A DNA stretch of 12,896 nt from a virus. Its lineage: Duplodnaviria; Heunggongvirae; Uroviricota; Caudoviricetes. Position 1 is the first letter of the stretch. Each line of letters begins with the position of its first letter. A program made the position numbers and the translations under genes. Shown in pieces: positions 5,476 through 12,896 of this stretch. The stretch is from the IMG/VR virus record IMGVR_UViG_2541047596_000008, positions 1-12,896 of that record; one strand, written 5' to 3'. The notes below the pieces were generated by a model. The model saw only the letters and a list, made by a program, of their open reading frames with translations, was not told where the DNA came from and did not search any database.

Positions 5476-6126
5476 TCAGCTAATCGTGATGCCTGCAGTG
5501 GCTTTCTTCATCACAACAACCAGCAAATCGCTGATACTTGCTGTGGGATACCAGCCATTTACCCACCATGCTGATACAGAAAACTCCAGCGTCATGTGGC
5601 CGCGACCAGCAGGCATATCAATAACACCACTGTAAATCAGCGTATTATCCAGCGCGGTACGGTTATAAATTTCAGCACCGTTTTTCCGTACTATCAGGCG
5701 GCATGACGAATAAGTATCGCTGTTCTCCCGCTCATGTCTGGCACCGCTGAAAGCCACCGCCGGAATAACAATCTGCCGGTTAAACGGCTGATCGTCATAA
5801 ACCCTGACGGTAATGGTTCCTGATGGCCAACGCTCCGGTGCACGGGAGTCACGGGGGAAAGCCTTACCCACTGTTTTAACGAGATCGCCTTCAATCTGGT
5901 TTGCAGACAGTTTCCCTCTGATGACACAGTTCTCGTTAATGGTGACATTATTGAGCGTGCCGGTATTCGCCGTGATGGCTCCACTGATATAAGGGGTTAT
6001 GGCCACCGGACTACCAAACGGCTGCCAGCCCTCTTTCAGTTTATGTGTCAGCTTTTCCGCAAGATCTGACGGCGACGCCGCTCTGACAACATCATAGTGT
6101 TTAAATGCCATGGTTCTTTCCACCAT
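5476..6126 (-). CDS. Probable C-terminal remnant of the central tail fibre/host-specificity protein J (about 210 aa retained)
   Basis: Position only: it sits immediately upstream of lom with a 67-bp gap, as J does in lambda. Base composition switches abruptly to AT-rich at about 6127, and the reading frame is open upstream to a stop near 6196 without a convincing start signal. I cannot recall the J C-terminal sequence well enough to confirm homology. Confidence 0.5.
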
Positions 6127-6371
6127 CTGAAAAATGATTCTTTAAAATACCTGACATGTAATACAGAAAAAACACAAAACCATACCTTAATTAAAAACCT
6201 CATCATCAAGCAGATATGCATGGATAAACTACAAGACGAGATATAAACCACCCTGCATTTAAATAAACAATAAACAACATCAGAAAAATAATTCTGCTCT
6301 ATGGTTTACAATCAAAAATATCATTTATACTTTTCAGAACATCACCAGCAAGGCATAAACAAGGAAACTAA

Positions 6372-6707
6372 ATGAAGTGGATTGTGATTGATACAGTTAT
6401 CCAGCCATCATGCGGAATATCTTTTTCAGTCATATGGAGTAAAATAAAATTAATAATCTGGTATCAATCGGATGCTTTCTTACCTCCTGAAAGTATATTT
6501 ACACTGACTCACACAGGCATCATGCTCAATAACAAAGTGCTGCCTGTAACCATTTACAACGTAGTACCATTCAATAAAACATTCTGGAATTTAATCAAAA
6601 ACAGCCAGGAATGCCCTACAAATACAGATAACGTATTGAATGAATGCTTTAATAACCGTTGCACTCTGCAAATATGTCCTTATGGGCTAAAACAACAAAG
6701 TCCATAA
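6372..6707 (+). CDS. Hypothetical protein, AT-rich cargo gene (111 aa, Cys-rich C-terminus)
   Basis: Good Shine-Dalgarno (AAGGAA, about 5 nt before the ATG) and a candidate promoter upstream (TTTACA, 17-nt spacer, TACTTT, about 6303-6331). About half of its Ile codons are the rare ATA. The C-terminus has four Cys spaced as C-x11-C-x4-C-x4-C ([23 protein letters not shown]). No family recognised. Confidence 0.4.
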
Positions 6708-6741
6708 GGAGTTTACTCACATCTGACAAAATCAATATAAA

Positions 6742-6763
6742 CAGCCCCTCCGGAGAGGGGCTG
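6742..6763. terminator. Strong GC hairpin (9-bp perfect stem, 4-nt loop), likely bidirectional terminator for the convergent cargo units
   Basis: CAGCCCCTC-CGGA-GAGGGGCTG; on the minus strand it is followed by TTTATATTGATTTTG. It lies 35 nt after the stop of the 6372..6707 ORF. Confidence 0.45.
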
Positions 6764-7154
6764 GAGAGTGGCGCTATGTGCCATTGCATGGTGCCGGGTG
6801 CCTCCCGGTGAATTCAGTACCAGCACCTGAATCCGCGATTATCCCATATACCTACTCGCTGATTGCCCCTCCGCACAGGGGGATTCACCATGCCAGTTTC
6901 TTTTAACAAACTCCCCGCAAACCAGACAACAGTCAACCGCCTGAATTGTGAAGTATTTAAAAATTTCTCCCGCTAACTGATACCCGGCTAACAGTCTGGC
7001 GTTTTCTTTTTCAGCAACGGGAAAGCAGCAACCACCACACCCGCCACCAGCACACCGTCAGCCAGCACTGACATTATCCGGCTGCTGCAATGCCATTCAC
7101 AAAAACAGTAAGCAATCACTTTTTACCGTAACCGGTGATAATCCAGATATGTAT

Positions 7155-7511
7155 CTACCCCAGATGAGTAATCCGAAGTTCATCCATACCACAGGTCCTG
7201 GCTATTCTGTTGTACTCCTGAACAAGAGCAAATAATTCTGAATTAGCCACCATGAACTCATCGCAAACCCTCTGTATAGCATCACTATTCAGAATAATAA
7301 CGTCTCTTCCCGAAAGACGATCAGGAGTACAGAACAAAACTGTCAAACGGCTGAAGGCCTTTGCTCGTTCTGCATTGACTATATCAATACGCTGCCTAAG
7401 GATGAAACACCCCGACGCCTCATCAATATTCACTCTACCCACACCATATGAATGATAAATATTTAATGCTGAAAAAACCATTAGACCGTATAACAAACAC
7501 TCAATCAACAC
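7155..7511 (-). CDS. Hypothetical protein, cargo ORF immediately downstream of the tRNA cluster (118 aa as tracked)
   Basis: The tracked start is a GTG with no Shine-Dalgarno; the first ATG is at codon 11. It is rich in rare AGA/AGG/ATA codons. No family recognised; it could be a remnant. Confidence 0.35.
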   Translation of the reverse strand: MLIECLLYGLMVFSALNIYHSYGVGRVNIDEASGCFILRQRIDIVNAERAKAFSRLTVLFCTPDRLSGRDVIILNSDAIQRVCDEFMVANSELFALVQEYNRIARTCGMDELRITHLG

Positions 7512-7618
7512 TTAACAGAACTTTTATTTTTGACAAACATATAATATTTTCAACAATATCCTGAGCCAGGTATATTTCAGTATAAGGCTCTGCCGAAAGG
7601 AATCTGGAAGAATGAATA

Positions 7619-7695
7619 TGGCGCGCTGTACTGGATTCGAACCAGTGACCGATTGCTTAGAAGGCAATTGCTCTGTCCGGCTGAGCTAACAACGC
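7619..7695 (-). tRNA. tRNA-Arg (anticodon UCU)
   Basis: The minus-strand sequence GCGTTGTTAGCTCAGCCGGACAGAGCAATTGCCTTCTAAGCAATCGGTCACTGGTTCGAATCCAGTACAGCGCGCCA folds as a cloverleaf with anticodon loop CTTCTAA, a GGTTCGAATCC T-arm and an encoded CCA. Confidence 0.85.
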
Positions 7696-7708
7696 ATGAT
7701 GCAGATAA

Positions 7709-7785
7709 TGGACCGCCATCGGGGACTTGAACCCCGCGCAGCCAGCTTCGAAGGCTGGCGCTCTTTCCTGATGAGCTAATGGCGG
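7709..7785 (-). tRNA. tRNA-Arg (anticodon UCG)
   Basis: The minus-strand sequence ...TAGCTCATCAGGAAAGAGCGCCAGCCTTCGAAGCTGGCTGCGCGGGGTTCAAGTCCCCGATGGCGGTCCA has anticodon stem CCAGC/GCTGG, loop CTTCGAA and a GGTTCAAGTCC T-arm. Confidence 0.8.
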
Positions 7786-7792
7786 TATGTGA

Positions 7793-7868
7793 TGGTGGCC
7801 CTTGCTGGATTTGAACCAGCGACCTGGCGATTATGAGTCGCTCGCTCTCACCACTGAGCTAAAGGGCC
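7793..7868 (-). tRNA. tRNA with CAU anticodon, most likely tRNA-Ile2 (lysidine-modified, reads AUA), alternatively tRNA-Met
   Basis: The minus-strand sequence GGCCCTTTAGCTCAGTGGTGAGAGCGAGCGACTCATAATCGCCAGGTCGCTGGTTCAAATCCAGCAAGGGCCACCA closely resembles E. coli ileX-type tRNA as I recall it; anticodon loop CTCATAA. Confidence 0.85.
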
Positions 7869-7904
7869 GGGAGCAGAATAATAACGGTCCGTAATTAATT
7901 CCGC

Positions 7905-7931
7905 AATAAAAAACCCGCTCGGCGGCGGGTT
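7905..7931 (-). terminator. tR'-like rho-independent terminator downstream of the Q-like gene
   Basis: Minus-strand hairpin AACCCGC-CGCCGA-GCGGGTT followed by TTTTTTATT, located between the candidate late promoter and the tRNA cluster. Confidence 0.6.
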
Positions 7932-7978
7932 GTAGAAACTCTTCTAACGTCAGGCATAAAAAGCCCATTGTTATGACG

Positions 7979-8006
7979 AATTTACCACAGATTCCGGAAA
8001 AATCAA
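7979..8006 (-). promoter_or_regulatory. Candidate late promoter (pR'-like) and presumptive Q-utilisation region
   Basis: On the minus strand TTGATT (8006..8001), a 16-nt spacer, then TAAATT (7984..7979), starting immediately after the Q-like stop. This is the same position as pR' relative to Q in lambda. Confidence 0.4.
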
Positions 8007-8011
8007 CCTTG

Positions 8012-8833
8012 TTACCTAGTTACCTTTTTTAACTGCCGCTCAGCCCATGCTTCTTCAATATCAAACCGGGTCACCAGCGCATCATAGAATTTCTTAACTG
8101 TTTTTTCCCATGACGCGCGTGTTATCTGGTTTGTCACCTCGCATATAGCATTAAATGCCTCCGTTGATGGTAGTCTTTCATAGCCACGACCACCACAACG
8201 CTGGCAGTCTCTGATAACAGGCATACCACGTTTTACCGACTCTTCACGATGAATGGCGACACCACGCCCACGGCAATCCTTACAGGCGGTGGAAACCTCA
8301 CCCTTTCCGCCACACTCCGGACAGGCAACTTTTACCACCTCCCTGACTTTTTTCCATTCTTCCCAGTAAGACGAATACACACCTTTCGTACACTTTGCCC
8401 ATACCGGCGGCTTACCATCCGGATACTGGACCTTGTTTGTAAAAACTACGCTTTCAATAAATTTTTCCCCATAGCAACAAGGGCACTGCTTTTTACTCGC
8501 TGCGCTGCGGGCATAATCCTCAAAAGCGTACGAAGCCATAATGCGCATCACTACCGGTTTTATTTCTGCCGGAAGTTTTCTCAACGCCGCCACACGATCG
8601 CACCGACTGAGTGCATAATCTGCCAGTAATTCTGTTGCCCGCGCCCTGTCATTCATACTGATGCCCATTTTCCCCAGGAACGCAGAAAAACCCATCTCAG
8701 CCCGATTCTGTGTCATGCCCTGCGCGGCCATCACATCAGTGATACTCAGCGCATCTTTTGACGTTGAGGCCGATGCATCGGTCAGGCCAGGGGATTTTGG
8801 GGAGTAGTATTTCGGTAAATCTTCCAGTTTCAT
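8012..8833 (-). CDS. Putative late-gene antitermination protein (Q-like) with four CxxCxGxG zinc-finger repeats
   Basis: Position: after rusA and before a promoter, terminator and the tRNAs. The C-terminal half carries CPCCYGEKF, CPECGGKGE, CKDCRGRGV and CQRCGGRGY. Size and position fit the larger Q-like proteins of E. coli prophages. The family assignment rests on synteny and zinc-finger content, not on a recognised alignment. Confidence 0.6.
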   Translation of the reverse strand: MKLEDLPKYYSPKSPGLTDASASTSKDALSITDVMAAQGMTQNRAEMGFSAFLGKMGISMNDRARATELLADYALSRCDRVAALRKLPAEIKPVVMRIMASYAFEDYARSAASKKQCPCCYGEKFIESVVFTNKVQYPDGKPPVWAKCTKGVYSSYWEEWKKVREVVKVACPECGGKGEVSTACKDCRGRGVAIHREESVKRGMPVIRDCQRCGGRGYERLPSTEAFNAICEVTNQITRASWEKTVKKFYDALVTRFDIEEAWAERQLKKVTR

Positions 8834-8847
8834 TTTTTGACCTGCTC

Positions 8848-9210
8848 TTAATGCATTATGGGGTAAATCTTCACCCCCAGACGTCCACCAGATACTGGCT
8901 GACCACGAACGATATTGATTTCATCAAACTGCTCATCGTCCATTAACACTCCCGCATGCGTCAGCGCATCCAGCGGTGCTTTCAGGATATTGTCCAGGTC
9001 GCGACGACGCTTATCCGGTGGCTCTGCAATCACCTTTATCGCCAGCCTTCCGGACAGGTTTAATTTCAGCCGCTGCTGGCGAACAATTAGCGCCACATCA
9101 CGGCGATAACGCTTTCCGGCCTCCGAGATGAAATACGTATTGCCATGACGTCGCCAGTAGGTATTCACCGTCGGCGGGTAAGGCAAAACAAATTCTATGC
9201 GTTCAGTCAT
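8848..9210 (-). CDS. rusA: Holliday junction resolvase RusA
   Basis: 120 aa with the motif PDKRRRDLDN and a downstream acidic MDDEQ, close to E. coli RusA as I recall it. The start ATG abuts the upstream stop (TGAATG). Confidence 0.88.
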   Translation of the reverse strand: MTERIEFVLPYPPTVNTYWRRHGNTYFISEAGKRYRRDVALIVRQQRLKLNLSGRLAIKVIAEPPDKRRRDLDNILKAPLDALTHAGVLMDDEQFDEINIVRGQPVSGGRLGVKIYPIMH

Positions 9211-10269
9211 TCATGCTTTCCACTTCAGGACACCCGAATTTCTCGCGTGCATTAAAAAACGAATCAGCAACAACAGCTGGCTGCCGTGTTTTTCTTCAAA
9301 ATCTTTTACCCCGGCGTGCAGTTCGTTATGACATTTACGGCACAGCGGAATAACAAACAAATCATCAGCCTTTGTTCCCATACCTCCCAGGCCATGACCA
9401 ATGATGTGATGCGGATCATCTGCCTGATTACCGCACGTCATGCATTTCTGCGTTTTTACCCAGCGCGTGTATACAGGCATCTCTTCCCGTTGTGGTTTCT
9501 GGCGCTGGAGATACTGAGCCGGAGACTCCGGATCAACGGCGATGCTTACTAACGTCTTTTCCTGGAGTGGGGGCTGTTGCTGGTGGACGTGAAGTGGCAG
9601 CGCAATATTTTTTGTGCGCTGCTTCAGTATGCTGGTGGCAGTCTGTTCTCCCGGTACGATGTCACTCTCACGGTATACGGAGCGGATTTTTTCCACCGGT
9701 AATCCCAGTGAACGACACAATACAGACTCCGGAAGCGCATCAGCCACCTGATTGCAGACCGCCCACCAGGATAATTCGGCCAGCGATAACTCCCTCTCCT
9801 GCGTACCGCTGATTGCGTGACGGATGACGTCAATCATCCATGCTGACAAGTTTTGGTGAGCAAGTTGCTCAAGTGATTCTGAGGTCTGGTCACACAACTG
9901 GTTGTCGCAGTGCCAGCACAACACCATTGCGCCGGTACCATAACGGTGAATGACGGTTTCACTGTGGTGATAATCACCGTGTGGCCACTGGCAGGATTTA
10001 ATATGGCGCAACAGCCAGTCAGACAGTGCACCAGCGCCGCCAGCAGCACGAATCACACGCTCATTGCTGAAAAATGGCAGTAATGATTTATCCTCCGCCA
10101 GCGGCTGGCGAACGGCAGGGACGACTCCGGATGGCAGGCCGCACATGCTTTTCGGTTCCGGCTCCACCAGCACTCGAGGATTATGAAATATCTGTATGGA
10201 TTCACGGCCCGGCTTAAGGACCACCAGCCCAAGCTCAGGCACCAGAACAGGTCTAAGTAATACCCGCAC
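9211..10269 (-). CDS. DUF968-type phage protein with C-terminal HNH-like zinc-finger motif (nin-region gene); N-terminus possibly over-extended
   Basis: C-terminal CMTCGNQADDPHHIIGHGLGGMGTKADDLFVIPLCRKCHNELH (CxxC, HH, CxxCH). Position upstream of rusA. An internal ATG at codon 42 has a GGAG-like Shine-Dalgarno and may be the real start. Confidence 0.6.
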   Translation of the reverse strand: MRVLLRPVLVPELGLVVLKPGRESIQIFHNPRVLVEPEPKSMCGLPSGVVPAVRQPLAEDKSLLPFFSNERVIRAAGGAGALSDWLLRHIKSCQWPHGDYHHSETVIHRYGTGAMVLCWHCDNQLCDQTSESLEQLAHQNLSAWMIDVIRHAISGTQERELSLAELSWWAVCNQVADALPESVLCRSLGLPVEKIRSVYRESDIVPGEQTATSILKQRTKNIALPLHVHQQQPPLQEKTLVSIAVDPESPAQYLQRQKPQREEMPVYTRWVKTQKCMTCGNQADDPHHIIGHGLGGMGTKADDLFVIPLCRKCHNELHAGVKDFEEKHGSQLLLLIRFLMHARNSGVLKWKA

Positions 10270-10398
10270 GTTACCTCCAGATCCGTTGCTGGAAAGTGCG
10301 GGACGGACGTGGTGGGCGTTCGGAATAAGGCAGCCTGACAGAGATTATCCAGTGCCGATAACCAAGTAAAAGTCACCGCTGACGAAGTAAACAAAATT

Positions 10399-11478
10399 AT
10401 GCAGGCAGCCAATATCAGCCAGCCTGACGCCGATAAGTTGCTTGCTGCATCACGTGGTGAATTTGTTGAAGGGATTAGTGACCCGAATGATCCGAAATGG
10501 GTTAAGGGGCTCCAGACCCGCGATTCTGTGAACCAGAACCAGCATGAATCGGAACGGAACTACCAAAAAGCGGAACAAAACAGTCCAAATGCGTTACAAA
10601 ACGAGCCAGAAACGAAACAGCCTGAACCAGTAGCGCAACAGGAAGTGGAAAAAGTCTGCACCGCCTGCGGTCAGACCGGCGGCGGCAACTGCCCTGATTG
10701 TGGCGCGGTGATGGGCGACGCAACATACCAAGAAACATTCGATGAAGAGTATCAGGTTGAAGTTCAGGAAGATGATCCGGAGGAAATGGAAGGCGCTGAA
10801 CATCCACACAAGGAGAACACTGGCGGCAATCAGCATCACAATAGCGATAATGAAACTGGCGAGACGGCAGATCACCCAATTAAGGTGAACGGTCATCACG
10901 AAATCACATCCACCAGCAGGACGTGTGACCATCTAATGATCGACCTTGAAACCATGGGAAAAAATCCTGATGCCCCGATCATCTCAATAGGTGCAATATT
11001 TTTCGATCCGCAAACCGGAGATATGGGACCGGAATTTAGTAAGACTATCGATCTGGAAACTGCTGGCGGAGTCATTGATCGGGACACCATTAAATGGTGG
11101 CTTAAGCAATCACGCGAAGCGCAATCTGCCATTATGACCGATGAAATCCCGTTAGATGATGCACTGTTACAATTGCGAGAATTTATCGACGAAAACTCCG
11201 GTGAATTTTTTGTTCAGGTTTGGGGAAATGGAGCCAACTTCGACAACACGATTTTGCGCCGTTCATACGAACGGCAGGGGATCCCCTGCCCGTGGCGTTA
11301 CTACAACGATCGCGATGTACGCACAATCGTTGAGCTGGGGAAAGCCATAGACTTCGATGCCAGAACGGCTATTCCATTCGAAGGTGAGCGCCATAATGCA
11401 CTTGATGACGCCCGTTACCAGGCAAAATACGTTTCAGTTATCTGGCAAAAACTGATCCCGAGTCAGGCTGATTTTTAA
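10399..11478 (+). CDS. DEDDh-family 3'-5' exonuclease with a long acidic N-terminal extension containing a C4 zinc ribbon
   Basis: Exo I motif MIDLETMG, Exo II motif VWGNGANFD and Exo III motif [10 protein letters not shown] in the C-terminal roughly 180 aa. The N-terminal roughly 180 aa is low-complexity and acidic with [16 protein letters not shown]. It lies just upstream of xis and int, the position of early-left recombination or accessory genes. Confidence 0.7.
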
Positions 11479-11539
11479 TGTTCAACCGTCGCCAGTTGTC
11501 GTTGATATTCTGCAACTGGCGCGTTCCGGAGTGATAGCC

Positions 11540-11809
11540 ATGAGCGAACAGTACCTGATAACGCTCGACGAGTGGAAACCAAAACGGTTCAGTCTCCCAA
11601 TAACAAACACTACCCTGGTGAAATACGGAAAACTAGGATACATCGTTCCAAGGCCACAAAAAATTCGTGGGCGTTGGCTGATAGATCGCCGAGCAGTATT
11701 TGTTGGGCCTGGTGAAACGGGAATTGCGCCGGAAATTCATACTGGCGATGATGATGCACTGAAGGAGATTTTAACTCATGTCACCGAGGCCACGAAAAAA
11801 CAGCACTGA
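11540..11809 (+). CDS. xis: Excisionase-like protein (Xis)
   Basis: Small basic protein immediately upstream of, and overlapping, the integrase gene. GGAG Shine-Dalgarno 8 nt before the ATG at 11540; the tracked ORF begins at an upstream GTG at 11531. Assignment is mainly positional. Confidence 0.55.
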   Translation: MSEQYLITLDEWKPKRFSLPITNTTLVKYGKLGYIVPRPQKIRGRWLIDRRAVFVGPGETGIAPEIHTGDDDALKEILTHVTEATKKQH

Positions 11810-12896
11810 CGTAGCCGGTCTTTACGAAAAGTTTGATCGCAGAACTGGCAGAGTTTACTACCAGTATAAAAATCCTGTGACTGGAAAATTTCACGGACTC
11901 GGAACAGACAAAGGTAAGGCAGAAAAAATCGCTTCCACAGCCAATCAGCGAATAGCTGCAGCAGAAGCTGAATATTTCATGCGCAAAATTGATGAAAGTC
12001 CGTCAGCAACAAAACGTCGGGGTATCAGATTAAAGGCATGGGTTGATCGATATCTGAAAATACAGGACACGCGACTGAAAAATGGAGATATTGCAGCTAC
12101 AACTCACAAAGAAAAAACTCGAATGGCTGCATACCTGGTTTCCCGTCTGGGAAACCACCCATTGAAAGAACTGGAAGTAAGAGACTTTGCATTAATACTG
12201 GATGAGTGGCTGGATAAAGACATGGTCAGCACAGCGAGAGTAAATCGTGGATTATGGGTTGATATTTATAAAGAAGCACAGCATGCAGGGGAAGTTCCTC
12301 CTGGATGGAATCCTCCGGAGGCTACCCGTAAACCGATCCCTAAAGTAACCAGAGCCAGGCTCACCATGGAAGACTGGCAAAAAATTTACAATGCAACGCC
12401 TGAAAAACACTTTATCCGTAACGCAATGCTTCTTGCGATTGTTACTGGTCAGCGCCGTGATGACATTTGCCACATGCGTTTTTCAGATGTGTGGAACGAA
12501 CACTTGCATATCACCCAGGGAAAAACCGGAATGCGTCTGGCGTTACCGCTTACACTACGCTGTGATGCCATTGGGATAACGTTAAAAGAAGTTATTGATG
12601 GGTGCCGAGACAGAATATTAAGTCCATATCTAATCCATAGTCGGCACCAGAAACAACCGAAGCCGATGAGTAAAGACAACCTGAGCGACTACTTTGCCAA
12701 AGCACGGGATCTGGCTGGGATAATTCCACCAGCAGGAAAAACTCCGCCAACATTTCATGAACAACGCTCTCTATCAGAACGGCTGTACCGTGCACAGGGT
12801 ATCGATACAAAAACATTACTAGGACATAAAGTCCAGGCAACCACCGATCGCTATAACGATACTCGAGGTCAGGAATGGGTTAAGTTGGTTATTTGA
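11778..12896 (+). CDS. int: Lambda-family tyrosine integrase
   Basis: Catalytic-core motifs TGQRRDDICHMRF, HEQRSLSERLY and LLGHKVQATTDRYNDTRGQEW (catalytic Tyr) align with lambda Int as I recall it. AAGGAG Shine-Dalgarno upstream. The 5' end overlaps xis. The gene is transcribed towards the right edge, so the att site should lie just beyond the window. Confidence 0.9.
   Translation: MSPRPRKNSTDVAGLYEKFDRRTGRVYYQYKNPVTGKFHGLGTDKGKAEKIASTANQRIAAAEAEYFMRKIDESPSATKRRGIRLKAWVDRYLKIQDTRLKNGDIAATTHKEKTRMAAYLVSRLGNHPLKELEVRDFALILDEWLDKDMVSTARVNRGLWVDIYKEAQHAGEVPPGWNPPEATRKPIPKVTRARLTMEDWQKIYNATPEKHFIRNAMLLAIVTGQRRDDICHMRFSDVWNEHLHITQGKTGMRLALPLTLRCDAIGITLKEVIDGCRDRILSPYLIHSRHQKQPKPMSKDNLSDYFAKARDLAGIIPPAGKTPPTFHEQRSLSERLYRAQGIDTKTLLGHKVQATTDRYNDTRGQEWVKLVI

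Follow-up and report, generated by a model that had tools for sequence, protein, structure and literature searches.

A DEDDh exonuclease open reading frame in a lambdoid prophage is probably the 3' remnant of a gene with a RecE-type N-terminal region

The N-terminal region of full-length RecE boosts linear-linear recombination. The nuclease domain of the protein has been placed at residues 564–866 (PMC11611040). In the Rec modules of lambdoid phages, DnaQ-type nucleases encoded very near int were described in 2025, and DnaQ-like 3'-5' nucleases usually inhibit recombination (PMC12315714). EcD (HREX), an E. coli homologue of the T4 exonuclease DexA, has been reported to digest DNA containing 5hmC and to protect against T4; the HREX signature is a Trp (W152 in DexA) and an acidic residue (D169) for 5hmC recognition, together with loss of the Asp at the tetramer interface (D90) (PMC12153337). 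The locus described here combines relatives of both RecE and DexA. It lies within the window, the whole 12,896-nucleotide stretch of viral DNA that was analyzed.

A mechanically called ORF of 359 codons is open without interruption on the plus strand from 10399 to 11478. Its catalytic half is, by homology, a DEDDh (DnaQ-like) 3'-5' exonuclease domain in which all catalytic residues are present. Pfam assigned residues 178–349 (10930–11445, plus strand) to PF16473 (Rv2179c-like; the domain is also DexA-like) with E = 5e-68 and 228.6 bits against a cut-off of 27, and the match takes in positions 2–177 of the 177-position profile. The DEDDh motifs named in the original prediction are intact on the plus strand: Exo I at 10942–10950 (D182/E184, MIDLET), the Exo II Asp at 11242–11244 (D282, WGNGANFD) and Exo III at 11392–11409 (H332/D337, HNALDD). 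The Exo I Asp and Glu and the Exo II Asp are invariant in a three-way alignment with T4 DexA and the mEp235 exonuclease; Exo III, which MAFFT offsets in that alignment, was placed by motif. Among solved chains the best match is 8KEL_A, an exodeoxyribonuclease of 227 residues that corresponds to T4 DexA by alignment (E = 4e-7). No YqaJ/lambda-exo PD-(D/E)XK domain was matched by Pfam in the ORF, in agreement with the earlier view that this is not a lambda Exo (RecB-like) enzyme. AlphaFold2 modeling of the 359 residues gave a mean pLDDT of 32 and a pTM of 0.19, too low for a usable model, from a shallow alignment of 24 sequences, whose rows are mostly 92–100% identical to the query, with four at 69–88%. 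The homologue search with the ORF covered matches less than about 1.7 times as long as the query, most of them partial entries from E. coli; full-length homologues were taken from RefSeq annotation and a search of cluster representatives. Rfam recognized no RNA element in 10000–11600. Two antisense ORFs (10502–10879 and 10594–10932) were set aside as mechanical by-products of the coding strand.

The 177 residues that precede the nuclease domain are acidic, as had been predicted: 36 Asp and Glu stand against 12 Lys and Arg (net charge −24), and only 15% of residues are hydrophobic. They contain a Cys4 knuckle (C87, C90, C98 and C101; 10657–10701, plus strand) that is a putative zinc-binding site. 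The four cysteines of the proposed zinc ribbon are thus present, but the spacing given for them, CxxC-x9-CxxC, was wrong; it is C87-x2-C90-x7-C98-x2-C101, i.e., CxxC-x7-CxxC. All four are invariant in an alignment of 17 sequences; in the alignment of 24, three are invariant and C87 is kept in at least 90%. The acidic low-complexity linker occupies residues 102–177 (10702–10929, plus strand), and residues 103–177 hold 20 Asp and Glu versus 3 Lys and Arg in 75 residues. The equivalent segment of RecE has 22 versus 2. The knuckle itself is found in K-12 RecE (C517–C531) and in divergent cluster representatives (P0247, P0270 and P0291), and so is retained in sequences less than 50% identical; it is absent from the other RecE-family representatives examined.

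Knuckle and linker fall within a block (residues 10–163; 10426–10887, plus strand) that is homologous to the distal N-terminal region of RecE (exonuclease VIII). The block is 67% identical to RecE 454–592 (BLASTP, E = 7e-66), which makes the protein a relative of RecE in its non-catalytic half, and the similarity extends to the DNA (10431–10873 versus recE nucleotides 1365–1765, 78%). Judged by this homology, the "zinc ribbon and acidic linker" is the distal part of the RecE N-terminal region and not a novel appendage. In the full-length protein of E. coli G1/2, residues 58–617 align with RecE 50–592 at 59% identity over 567 residues, and PF06630 (Exonuc_VIII) is recognized in the intact protein with E = 3e-35; the window ORF, which keeps only the equivalent of RecE 454–592, has no PF06630 match. 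PF12684 (DUF3799), the PD-(D/E)XK 5'-3' nuclease domain at the C-terminus of RecE, which RecE itself matches at E = 4e-28, was found neither in the window ORF nor in its full-length relatives. Homology to RecE stops at about RecE residue 592; the shared block enters the published nuclease range by about 28 residues and stops before the Pfam PD-(D/E)XK match, which runs from RecE 615 on. The intact protein is, on this comparison, a RecE N-terminal region with a predicted DexA-like 3'-5' exonuclease in place of the PD-(D/E)XK 5'-3' nuclease.

The start of the ORF was located by comparison with the closest intact relative, the prophage of E. coli G1/2 (L002), which is about 99.9% identical on both sides and served as the reference for the deletion. 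Window positions 5988–10360 correspond to 129–4501 of L002 at 99.93%, and 10351–12896 to 12953–15498 at 99.88%. The two segments meet at a junction, 10360|10361, at which 8,461 bp are missing relative to G1/2 and which carries an imperfect 10-bp microhomology at 10351–10360 (AGTGCCGATA versus AGTTCCGCTA; 8 of 10 positions match). On the right lies the retained 3' portion of a RecE-N::DexA-like exonuclease gene (10361–11478, plus strand), assigned by collinearity as about codons 442–813 plus the TAA stop. On the left is the remnant 3' end of a hypothetical gene (10270–10360, minus strand; L002 CDS 4412–4684, minus strand) that lies upstream of the DUF968 gene in intact prophages. The exonuclease gene of G1/2 (L002 11639–14080; 2,442 nt) codes for 813 residues, and the junction cuts it at about nucleotide 1324, codon 441/442.

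In RefSeq the intact G1/2 gene codes for 813 residues and its counterpart in the DH5alpha Qin prophage (L001) for 825, and the window ORF is 100% and 99.9% identical, respectively, to the last 1,080 nt of these genes. Because ATG 10399 is internal (Met455 of the 813-residue protein, Met467 of the Qin version), the N-terminal region comprises about 630 residues and not about 180. The frame runs on upstream of 10399 as far as the junction, and the in-frame TGA at 10336–10338 sits in unrelated DNA beyond it. From collinearity, no gene starts where the ORF does. Two exonuclease profiles in PHROG, of 530 and 823 positions, give the same picture, with the ORF aligning only to their C-terminal 359 positions. 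What had been taken for a complete gene with an N-terminus of about 180 residues is what an 8,461-bp deletion left of the 3' part of a 2.44-kb gene.

By a microhomology-associated deletion, sequence that lies immediately upstream of the DUF968 gene was brought next to codon 441/442 or so. The deletion took out the early promoters and the 5' 54% of the exonuclease gene; also gone are hokD, the replication genes, cro/cI, ydfABC and dicB, and with them the whole immunity and replication region. The DUF968/HNH gene (ydfU-like; 9211–10269, minus strand; PF06147, E = 3e-63; annotated in L002) is now the divergent neighbor of the exonuclease remnant. Downstream are the excisionase gene (11540–11809, plus strand; L002 CDS 14142–14411; Pfam Exc; Shine–Dalgarno dG −6.1) and the gene for a lambda-type tyrosine integrase (11778–12896, plus strand; Pfam Arm-DNA-bind_1 and Phage_integrase), which by genomic context marks the prophage end adjoining potC. 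xis and int directly follow the exonuclease gene in the window, in DH5alpha Qin, in G1/2 and in the complete phage PhiR42_1. The window no longer contains the early-left operon in which the ORF had been placed, since the deletion removed all that had separated the DUF968 gene from the exonuclease fragment.

We consider it probable (roughly 85%) that the ORF is what remains, at the 3' end, of a gene widespread in lambdoid prophages; this copy lost its front half and its promoters by deletion and is most likely silent or weakly expressed. Upstream of ATG 10399 the predicted anti-Shine–Dalgarno duplex is worth −0.6 kcal/mol, compared with −6.3 for the genuine start codons of full-length genes. 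A scan of 9900–11600 returned no sigma-70-like promoter, where shuffled sequences give 1.9, and no relevant promoter or terminator for the fragment. Neither a native ribosome-binding site nor a promoter or operon context was found for ATG 10399. Since the ORF begins at an internal Met that lacks a ribosome-binding site and a recognizable promoter, the present copy is most likely a pseudogene fragment that is silent or, at most, weakly expressed; both scans are consensus-based, and weak or read-through expression is compatible with their result. The statement that no Shine–Dalgarno sequence precedes the internal Met of the nuclease domain (Met180) was roughly right: an AGGA is present (anti-Shine–Dalgarno dG −5.0), but at about 14 nt upstream it is too far away for a typical site. 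The frame and the catalytic residues are intact, and a translated product remains compatible with the data.

Three other accounts of the ORF were weighed. The junction could be an artefact of draft assembly, the real locus having a full-length gene. The window is indeed 100% identical to a contig of a draft assembly (CAPL01000131.1 of GCA_000333195.1), and E. coli genomes hold several near-identical copies of the gene (median, 2 places per genome), a situation in which assemblers can go wrong. The identical protein is also encoded in a second record (L004), a short contig that lacks the junction and has an inverted duplication upstream. Against this, the sequence shared at the junction amounts to no more than an imperfect 10-mer, far below assembler k-mers, and overlaps of that sort do not typically lead to mis-joins; the contig is continuous for 115 kb through host genes and is reported from 2 samples; and independent natural truncations of the gene are common. 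A similar one arose in strain 3PT, where PGAP labels the gene a pseudogene missing its N-terminus, and in other genomes, too, disruption of the gene's upstream part leads to a call of the identical 359-residue ORF. We give an artefact only a slim chance. The original prediction, a complete early-left gene coding for a zinc-ribbon/acidic N-terminus of about 180 residues and a DEDDh exonuclease, draws on two sound observations, that the two parts are in frame and that the Cys4 motif and linker are conserved. It is scarcely credible given that the frame extends upstream of the ATG to the deletion junction, that intact relatives more than 99% identical code for 813–825 residues from starts with a Shine–Dalgarno sequence, and that PHROG and RefSeq models are 530–825 residues long; collinearity with the G1/2 and DH5alpha prophages has already refuted it.

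The truncated ORF might instead be expressed as a domesticated knuckle-linker-exonuclease, for example, a guard against phages with modified DNA in the manner of EcD (HREX). Its frame and DEDDh residues are intact, gene callers report it, and its stand-alone relatives T4 DexA and EcD are active (PMC12153337). Yet it has neither a Shine–Dalgarno nor a promoter-like signal, and its junction is unique: a search of 5,426 complete E. coli genomes found it in none. The open frame is uninformative on selection, because the sequence is 100% identical to intact copies; under the remnant reading it would only reflect how recent the deletion is. Nor are the HREX-defining residues clearly matched. In a low-identity alignment the equivalent of DexA W152 is Tyr302, with W299 three residues earlier, and the equivalent of D90, which is Ala in EcD, is apparently kept as Asp; at 28% identity no alignment of the D169 region was possible. 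With the 359-residue ORF, PADLOC returned no more than a generic match to a CRISPR-associated DEDDh protein (E = 5e-6), and with the full-length protein none. We regard domestication as improbable. The same PADLOC result lends no support to the suggestion of a nuclease aimed at substrates of host defence, and the sole published defence-type relative, EcD, acts in the opposite direction, for the host against phage (PMC12153337). With a generic match and without clear HREX signature residues, both defence and anti-defence readings were set aside.

The in-frame fusion, by contrast with the claim of a complete gene, is real: one reading frame runs through both parts, in the window as in every intact homologue examined. 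A stop codon separating them occurs by design in none of these homologues, and separate calls appear only in disrupted copies. Stand-alone homologues of the exonuclease domain do begin at Exo I, much as had been expected; the mEp235 gene (182 residues, 58% identity) is an example. The fusion architecture was found in thousands of E. coli genomes, in complete phage genomes, in PHROGs and in several clusters that share less than 50% identity with each other; in PhiR42_1 the version adjoining xis and int has 823 residues. Depending on the cluster representative, the RecE-type N-terminal module precedes a PD-(D/E)XK nuclease, a DEDDh nuclease or no nuclease. The RecE-N::DEDDh fusion is therefore genuine and conserved but already known, and the window ORF represents a prophage gene in ordinary decay rather than a novel exonuclease with a zinc ribbon. 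A literature search for RecE with DEDDh in prophages, for Rv2179c in prophages and for ydfE of Qin as an exonuclease returned nothing.

The parental protein would be a 3'-5' exonuclease that depends on Mg2+, with its gene adjoining xis and int and expressed from the early-left (pL) operon. Its RecE-type region may act as a scaffold or targeting module, with the nuclease held on a flexible acidic tether, and by analogy with T4 DexA its likely substrates would be DNA ends in phage DNA transactions. This biochemical role is drawn from distant relatives (28% identity to DexA). A role in recombination is uncertain, because the elements that carry the gene (DH5alpha Qin, G1/2 and PhiR42_1) have no single-strand annealing protein and because DnaQ-like nucleases generally act against recombination (PMC12315714). 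No recT follows the gene in these three or in the window.

The apparent compact zinc-ribbon exonuclease is an annotation trap produced by prophage decay, and the proper label for the ORF is a 5'-truncated pseudogene fragment. Nothing here is new enough, or specific enough to the locus, to rank high, and the parental family is of modest interest to specialists in recombineering and phage recombination. The homology shows a RecE N-terminal region recombined, near the start of the nuclease domain of RecE, onto a nuclease of opposite polarity, and this swap argues that the region has a role of its own, independent of RecE's nuclease. An idea that we think unlikely, if worth stating, is that the RecE-type region is a portable targeting or scaffold module that is coupled interchangeably, in lambdoid phages, to nucleases of opposite polarity or to none, and that truncations might stay active. 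If so, its combinations would be with a PD-(D/E)XK 5'-3' nuclease (RecE), with a DexA-like 3'-5' nuclease (the parental gene) and with none ("RecE-2"), and the role of the RecE N-terminus could be tested directly by comparing the three architectures. Natural truncations such as the 359-residue fragment, which keeps knuckle, tether and nuclease, would in that case offer constructs already made for dissecting the protein, and such fragments might exclude, for example, phages with modified DNA.

Among known systems, T4 DexA (PDB 8KEL) belongs to the same DEDDh family, with 28% identity (E = 4e-7) and conserved Exo motifs; DexA and EcD differ in being stand-alone proteins of about 180–230 residues. 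EcD is a different gene, since according to its cloning primers it starts MIDTET and ends TIPETYD. Rv2179c of Mycobacterium tuberculosis, the founder of PF16473, is related through the Pfam match over the full profile length; it is a 3'-5' exoribonuclease by its Pfam description, whereas DexA, the nearest characterized phage relative here, is a DNase. With the mEp235 exonuclease the domain shares 58% identity, and this enzyme too is encoded in an early-left operon near xis and int. However, it is a protein of 182 residues with its own Shine–Dalgarno sequence, encoded between ssb and abc2 and after erf, whereas the lineage of the window is fused to a RecE-type N-terminus in a prophage without an annealing protein.

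The RecE-type N-terminal region also occurs in the nuclease-less "RecE-2" proteins of lambdoid phages (PMC12315714), some of which (P0243, P0245 and P0247) have the same knuckle and linker; these proteins end in a short hydrophobic tail and have no nuclease domain, and in one locus (L009) gam, recT and yqaJ come after the gene. RecE of the Rac prophage in E. coli K-12 has the Cys4 knuckle and acidic linker in common with the present protein, its gene likewise lies in an early-left operon near xis and int, as does the parental gene, and the N-terminal region is without an assigned function in either protein (PMC11611040). In Rac, recE is followed by recT, which is not the case here, and the window copy has lost PF06630 and about 440 codons. 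The two proteins part most clearly in their catalytic domains, PF12684 with 5'-3' polarity in RecE and PF16473, a DEDDh domain of predicted 3'-5' polarity, in the gene described here.

The ORF at 10399–11478 (+ strand) runs uninterrupted for 359 residues. Pfam assigns residues 178–349 to the Rv2179c-like 3′-5′ exonuclease domain PF16473 (E = 5e-68; 228.6 bits against a cut-off of 27; full profile), and all of the DEDDh residues are present: D182 and E184 (MIDLET), D282 (WGNGANFD), and H332 and D337 (HNALDD). The exonuclease motifs predicted for the C-terminal half are thus borne out. So is the acidic nature of the first 177 residues, which contain 36 D + E against 12 K + R and just 15% hydrophobic residues. 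This region had also been credited with a CxxC-x9-CxxC zinc ribbon; the four cysteines were found, but their spacing is CxxC-x7-CxxC. The descriptive part of the original prediction was essentially correct, far beyond chance. The reading of this region as a complete N terminus of about 180 residues, however, did not survive comparison with other genomes.

The ORF is a 5′-truncated remnant of an already catalogued prophage gene. A megablast search located it in 4,739 of the 5,426 complete E. coli genomes searched, with query coverage of at least 80% in 4,072; what it matches there is the final 1,080 nt of a far longer annotated gene. Intact copies encode 825 residues in the Qin prophage of DH5alpha (locus L001, 10603–13080; WP_000048348) and 813 residues in strain G1/2 (locus L002, 11639–14080; WP_115202336). 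The G1/2 prophage, the closest intact relative, occupies the same potC-adjacent site as the window and has xis, int, DUF968, rusA, and Q genes in common with it. Window positions 5988–10360 align with L002 129–4501 (99.93% identity) and 10351–12896 with L002 12953–15498 (99.88%), from which it follows that 8,461 bp are missing from the window relative to G1/2. The deletion junction, 10360|10361, lies inside an imperfect 10-bp microhomology (AGTGCCGATA versus AGTTCCGCTA). Judged by the G1/2 annotation, the lost segment held hokD, replication genes, cro/cI, ydfA/B/C, dicB, one DUF1482 gene, and about 441 codons from the 5′ end of the exonuclease gene. The reading frame is open from the junction through the ATG at 10399, which corresponds to Met455 in the 813-residue protein; an in-frame TGA (10336) sits in the unrelated left flank. 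Two PHROG exonuclease profiles (530 and 823 positions) aligned to the ORF over their last 359 positions only. The predicted in-frame fusion is nonetheless real and conserved, since it is found in the intact prophage genes and in the complete phage PhiR42_1, where an 823-residue version lies between a ydfD-family gene and xis/int.

Signals for expression of the truncated copy were sought. Pairing of the 20 nt before 10399 with the anti-Shine-Dalgarno sequence is weak (−0.6 kcal/mol), compared with −6.3 for the genuine starts of the full-length genes and −8.8 for int of the window. No sigma-70-like promoter was found in 9900–11600 (shuffled sequence yields 1.9), and DUF968, the upstream neighbor, runs divergently. 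Together with the ends of the PHROG profiles, these observations argue against expression from ATG 10399, and this copy is most likely silent. Translation from Met455, should it occur, would probably yield an active nuclease, because in relatives the domain is sufficient on its own.

The window is 100% identical to contig CAPL01000131.1 (assembly GCA_000333195.1), and its junction is absent from all 5,426 complete E. coli genomes searched. The same gene has commonly been truncated independently elsewhere. At the Qin locus of E. coli 3PT (L005, 4092–5916), a different deletion has fused sequence from upstream of ydfU/DUF968 with the mid-portion of the exonuclease gene; PGAP labels this copy a pseudogene without its N terminus, and both flanking genes are marked partial. 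Decay has run in parallel here, at another prophage site. A 359-residue ORF with 99% identity is called in further genomes, in which the part of the gene before it is absent, lost beyond a contig end, or annotated as an ORF of its own; in five loci reaching rspB, it lies at the Qin (rspB-adjacent) site. Over its 1,080 nt the window copy does not differ from intact copies (100% identity), so its open frame shows the deletion to be recent and is no evidence of selection. Against all of the Qin-type copies (L001, L005, L010, and L012–L015), homology begins exactly at 10367. This position marks the mosaic boundary at which two unrelated variants of the protein's N terminus meet, and it lies just 7 nt from the deletion junction.

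Other parts of the window were annotated as well. A 216-residue ORF (5476–6126, − strand) joins a DUF1737 N terminus (residues 8–50) to the receptor-binding C terminus of tail-tip protein J (residues 86–216), and appears to be a second deletion scar through which this prophage lost its lysis, head, and tail genes; RefSeq places a truncated DUF1737 pseudogene at the corresponding position in G1/2. Between this J remnant and a tRNA cluster lie, side by side, an IraM/PmrD-like anti-adapter gene (6372–6707, + strand) and an Rfam STnc100 sRNA match (6733–6922, − strand; 132 bits versus a gathering score of 47). The three tRNAs (7619–7868, − strand), downstream of the Q antiterminator, are Arg-tct, Arg-tcg, and one with a CAT anticodon, called Met by ARAGORN and Ile by RefSeq in the matching G1/2 locus. 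The Q gene (8012–8833, − strand) matches the Antiterm domain in two stretches and, below threshold, a DnaJ-type CXXCXGXG zinc finger (29.6 bits versus a cut-off of 32.7). A SAM-dependent methyltransferase gene (324–992, + strand) is flanked by tail-fiber assembly (tfa) genes (1–267 and 1047–1631, both − strand), one full and the other a C-terminal-only fragment; an Rfam IS009 RNA match (1090–1288, − strand; 222 bits) falls within the full one.

The N-terminal part is related to RecE, exonuclease VIII of the K-12 Rac prophage. Residues 10–163 match RecE 454–592 with 67% identity (E = 7e-66), and at the DNA level 10431–10873 matches recE nt 1365–1765 (78%). The intact G1/2 protein contains PF06630 (Exonuc_VIII) and is 59% identical to RecE residues 50–592. 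RecE has its own cysteine knuckle (C517–C531, CNACGQTGGDNCPDC), followed by an acidic stretch with 22 D + E in 70 residues. On these similarities, what looked like a novel appendage is the distal end of RecE's N-terminal region. Homology ends at about residue 592, before the Pfam PD-(D/E)XK match that starts at RecE 615; as the nuclease domain is given as residues 564–866 (PMC11611040), the shared block ends slightly inside that range.

This N-terminal module is narrowly distributed. When 1.84 billion cluster representatives were scanned in full with HMMER, the 177-residue part gave only 80 matches (E ≤ 1e-3), 36 of them with E ≤ 1e-10, and the source-named matches in the first homologue search were all Escherichia or Shigella. 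Pfam scans of long representatives revealed four kinds of architecture: PF06630 with PF12684, i.e., RecE proper (P0259, P0291, P0294, P0299, and P0305); PF16473 joined either to PF06630 (P0242, P0273, and P0308) or to a different, Qin-K-12-type N terminus (P0241 and P0244); PF06630 with the nuclease domain absent (P0243, P0247, P0292, P0313, and others); and, in one case (P0258, 703 aa), PF06630 and RecT in a single polypeptide, where a deletion may have fused recE with recT. All four cysteines of the knuckle are invariant in 17 sequences of the close family; in a 24-sequence alignment, three cysteines are invariant and C87 is kept in at least 90%. Among divergent representatives, it occurs in P0247, P0270, and P0291 and is absent from others, which makes the knuckle a feature of the RecE-family linker that is conserved but not obligatory. 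P0243, P0245, and P0247 combine the same knuckle and acidic linker with no nuclease domain, and such proteins terminate in a short hydrophobic tail; a fragment of this form (L009, 1217–1942) precedes gam, recT, yqaJ, and lar. These nuclease-less forms are probably equivalent to the "RecE-2" proteins, RecE relatives missing the nuclease domain whose roles are not established (PMC12315714). Phages often carry stand-alone homologues of the nuclease domain: 773 phage records match, 737 at <60% identity, just 24 cover at least 80% of the query, and the lower-identity matches listed span only about residues 176–352. In mEp235, a stand-alone 182-residue gene (58% identical) has its own Shine-Dalgarno sequence and follows erf and ssb, before abc2.

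The parental protein would be a metal-dependent 3′-5′ exonuclease, expressed from pL and held by a flexible acidic linker on a RecE-type scaffold with a small putative zinc knuckle; its target may be DNA ends in the course of phage DNA transactions. Participation in classical single-strand-annealing recombination is doubtful, because no annealing protein is encoded beside the gene in L001, L002, or PhiR42_1 and DnaQ-like 3′-5′ nucleases generally oppose recombination (PMC12315714). The same paper notes DnaQ-type nucleases whose genes lie very close to int.

The RecE-N::DEDDh fusion is included in PHROGs and is routinely annotated as "exonuclease," "3′-5′ exoribonuclease domain-containing protein," or "exodeoxyribonuclease VIII," although our literature searches found no paper describing it as such. 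The closest solved chain to the window domain is PDB 8KEL (E = 4e-7), and the structure of T4 DexA has been solved (NAR 2025, PMC12153337). EcD, an E. coli homologue that stands alone, is reported to digest DNA modified with 5hmC and to give protection against T4 (PMC12153337); by its cloning primers (start MIDTET, end TIPETYD), it is a different gene. The residues that define the defense type in that study are not clearly present here: in a weak alignment (28% identity), DexA W152 aligns with Tyr302 and D90 apparently with Asp. RecE carries a PD-(D/E)XK nuclease (PF12684, E = 4e-28), whereas the parental protein has a DEDDh domain in its place; given the homology up to about residue 592, the parental protein is therefore the RecE N-terminal region with its PD-(D/E)XK nuclease replaced. 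The point of interest that is left is this enigmatic RecE N terminus with its conserved Cys4 knuckle, coupled to nucleases of opposite polarity.
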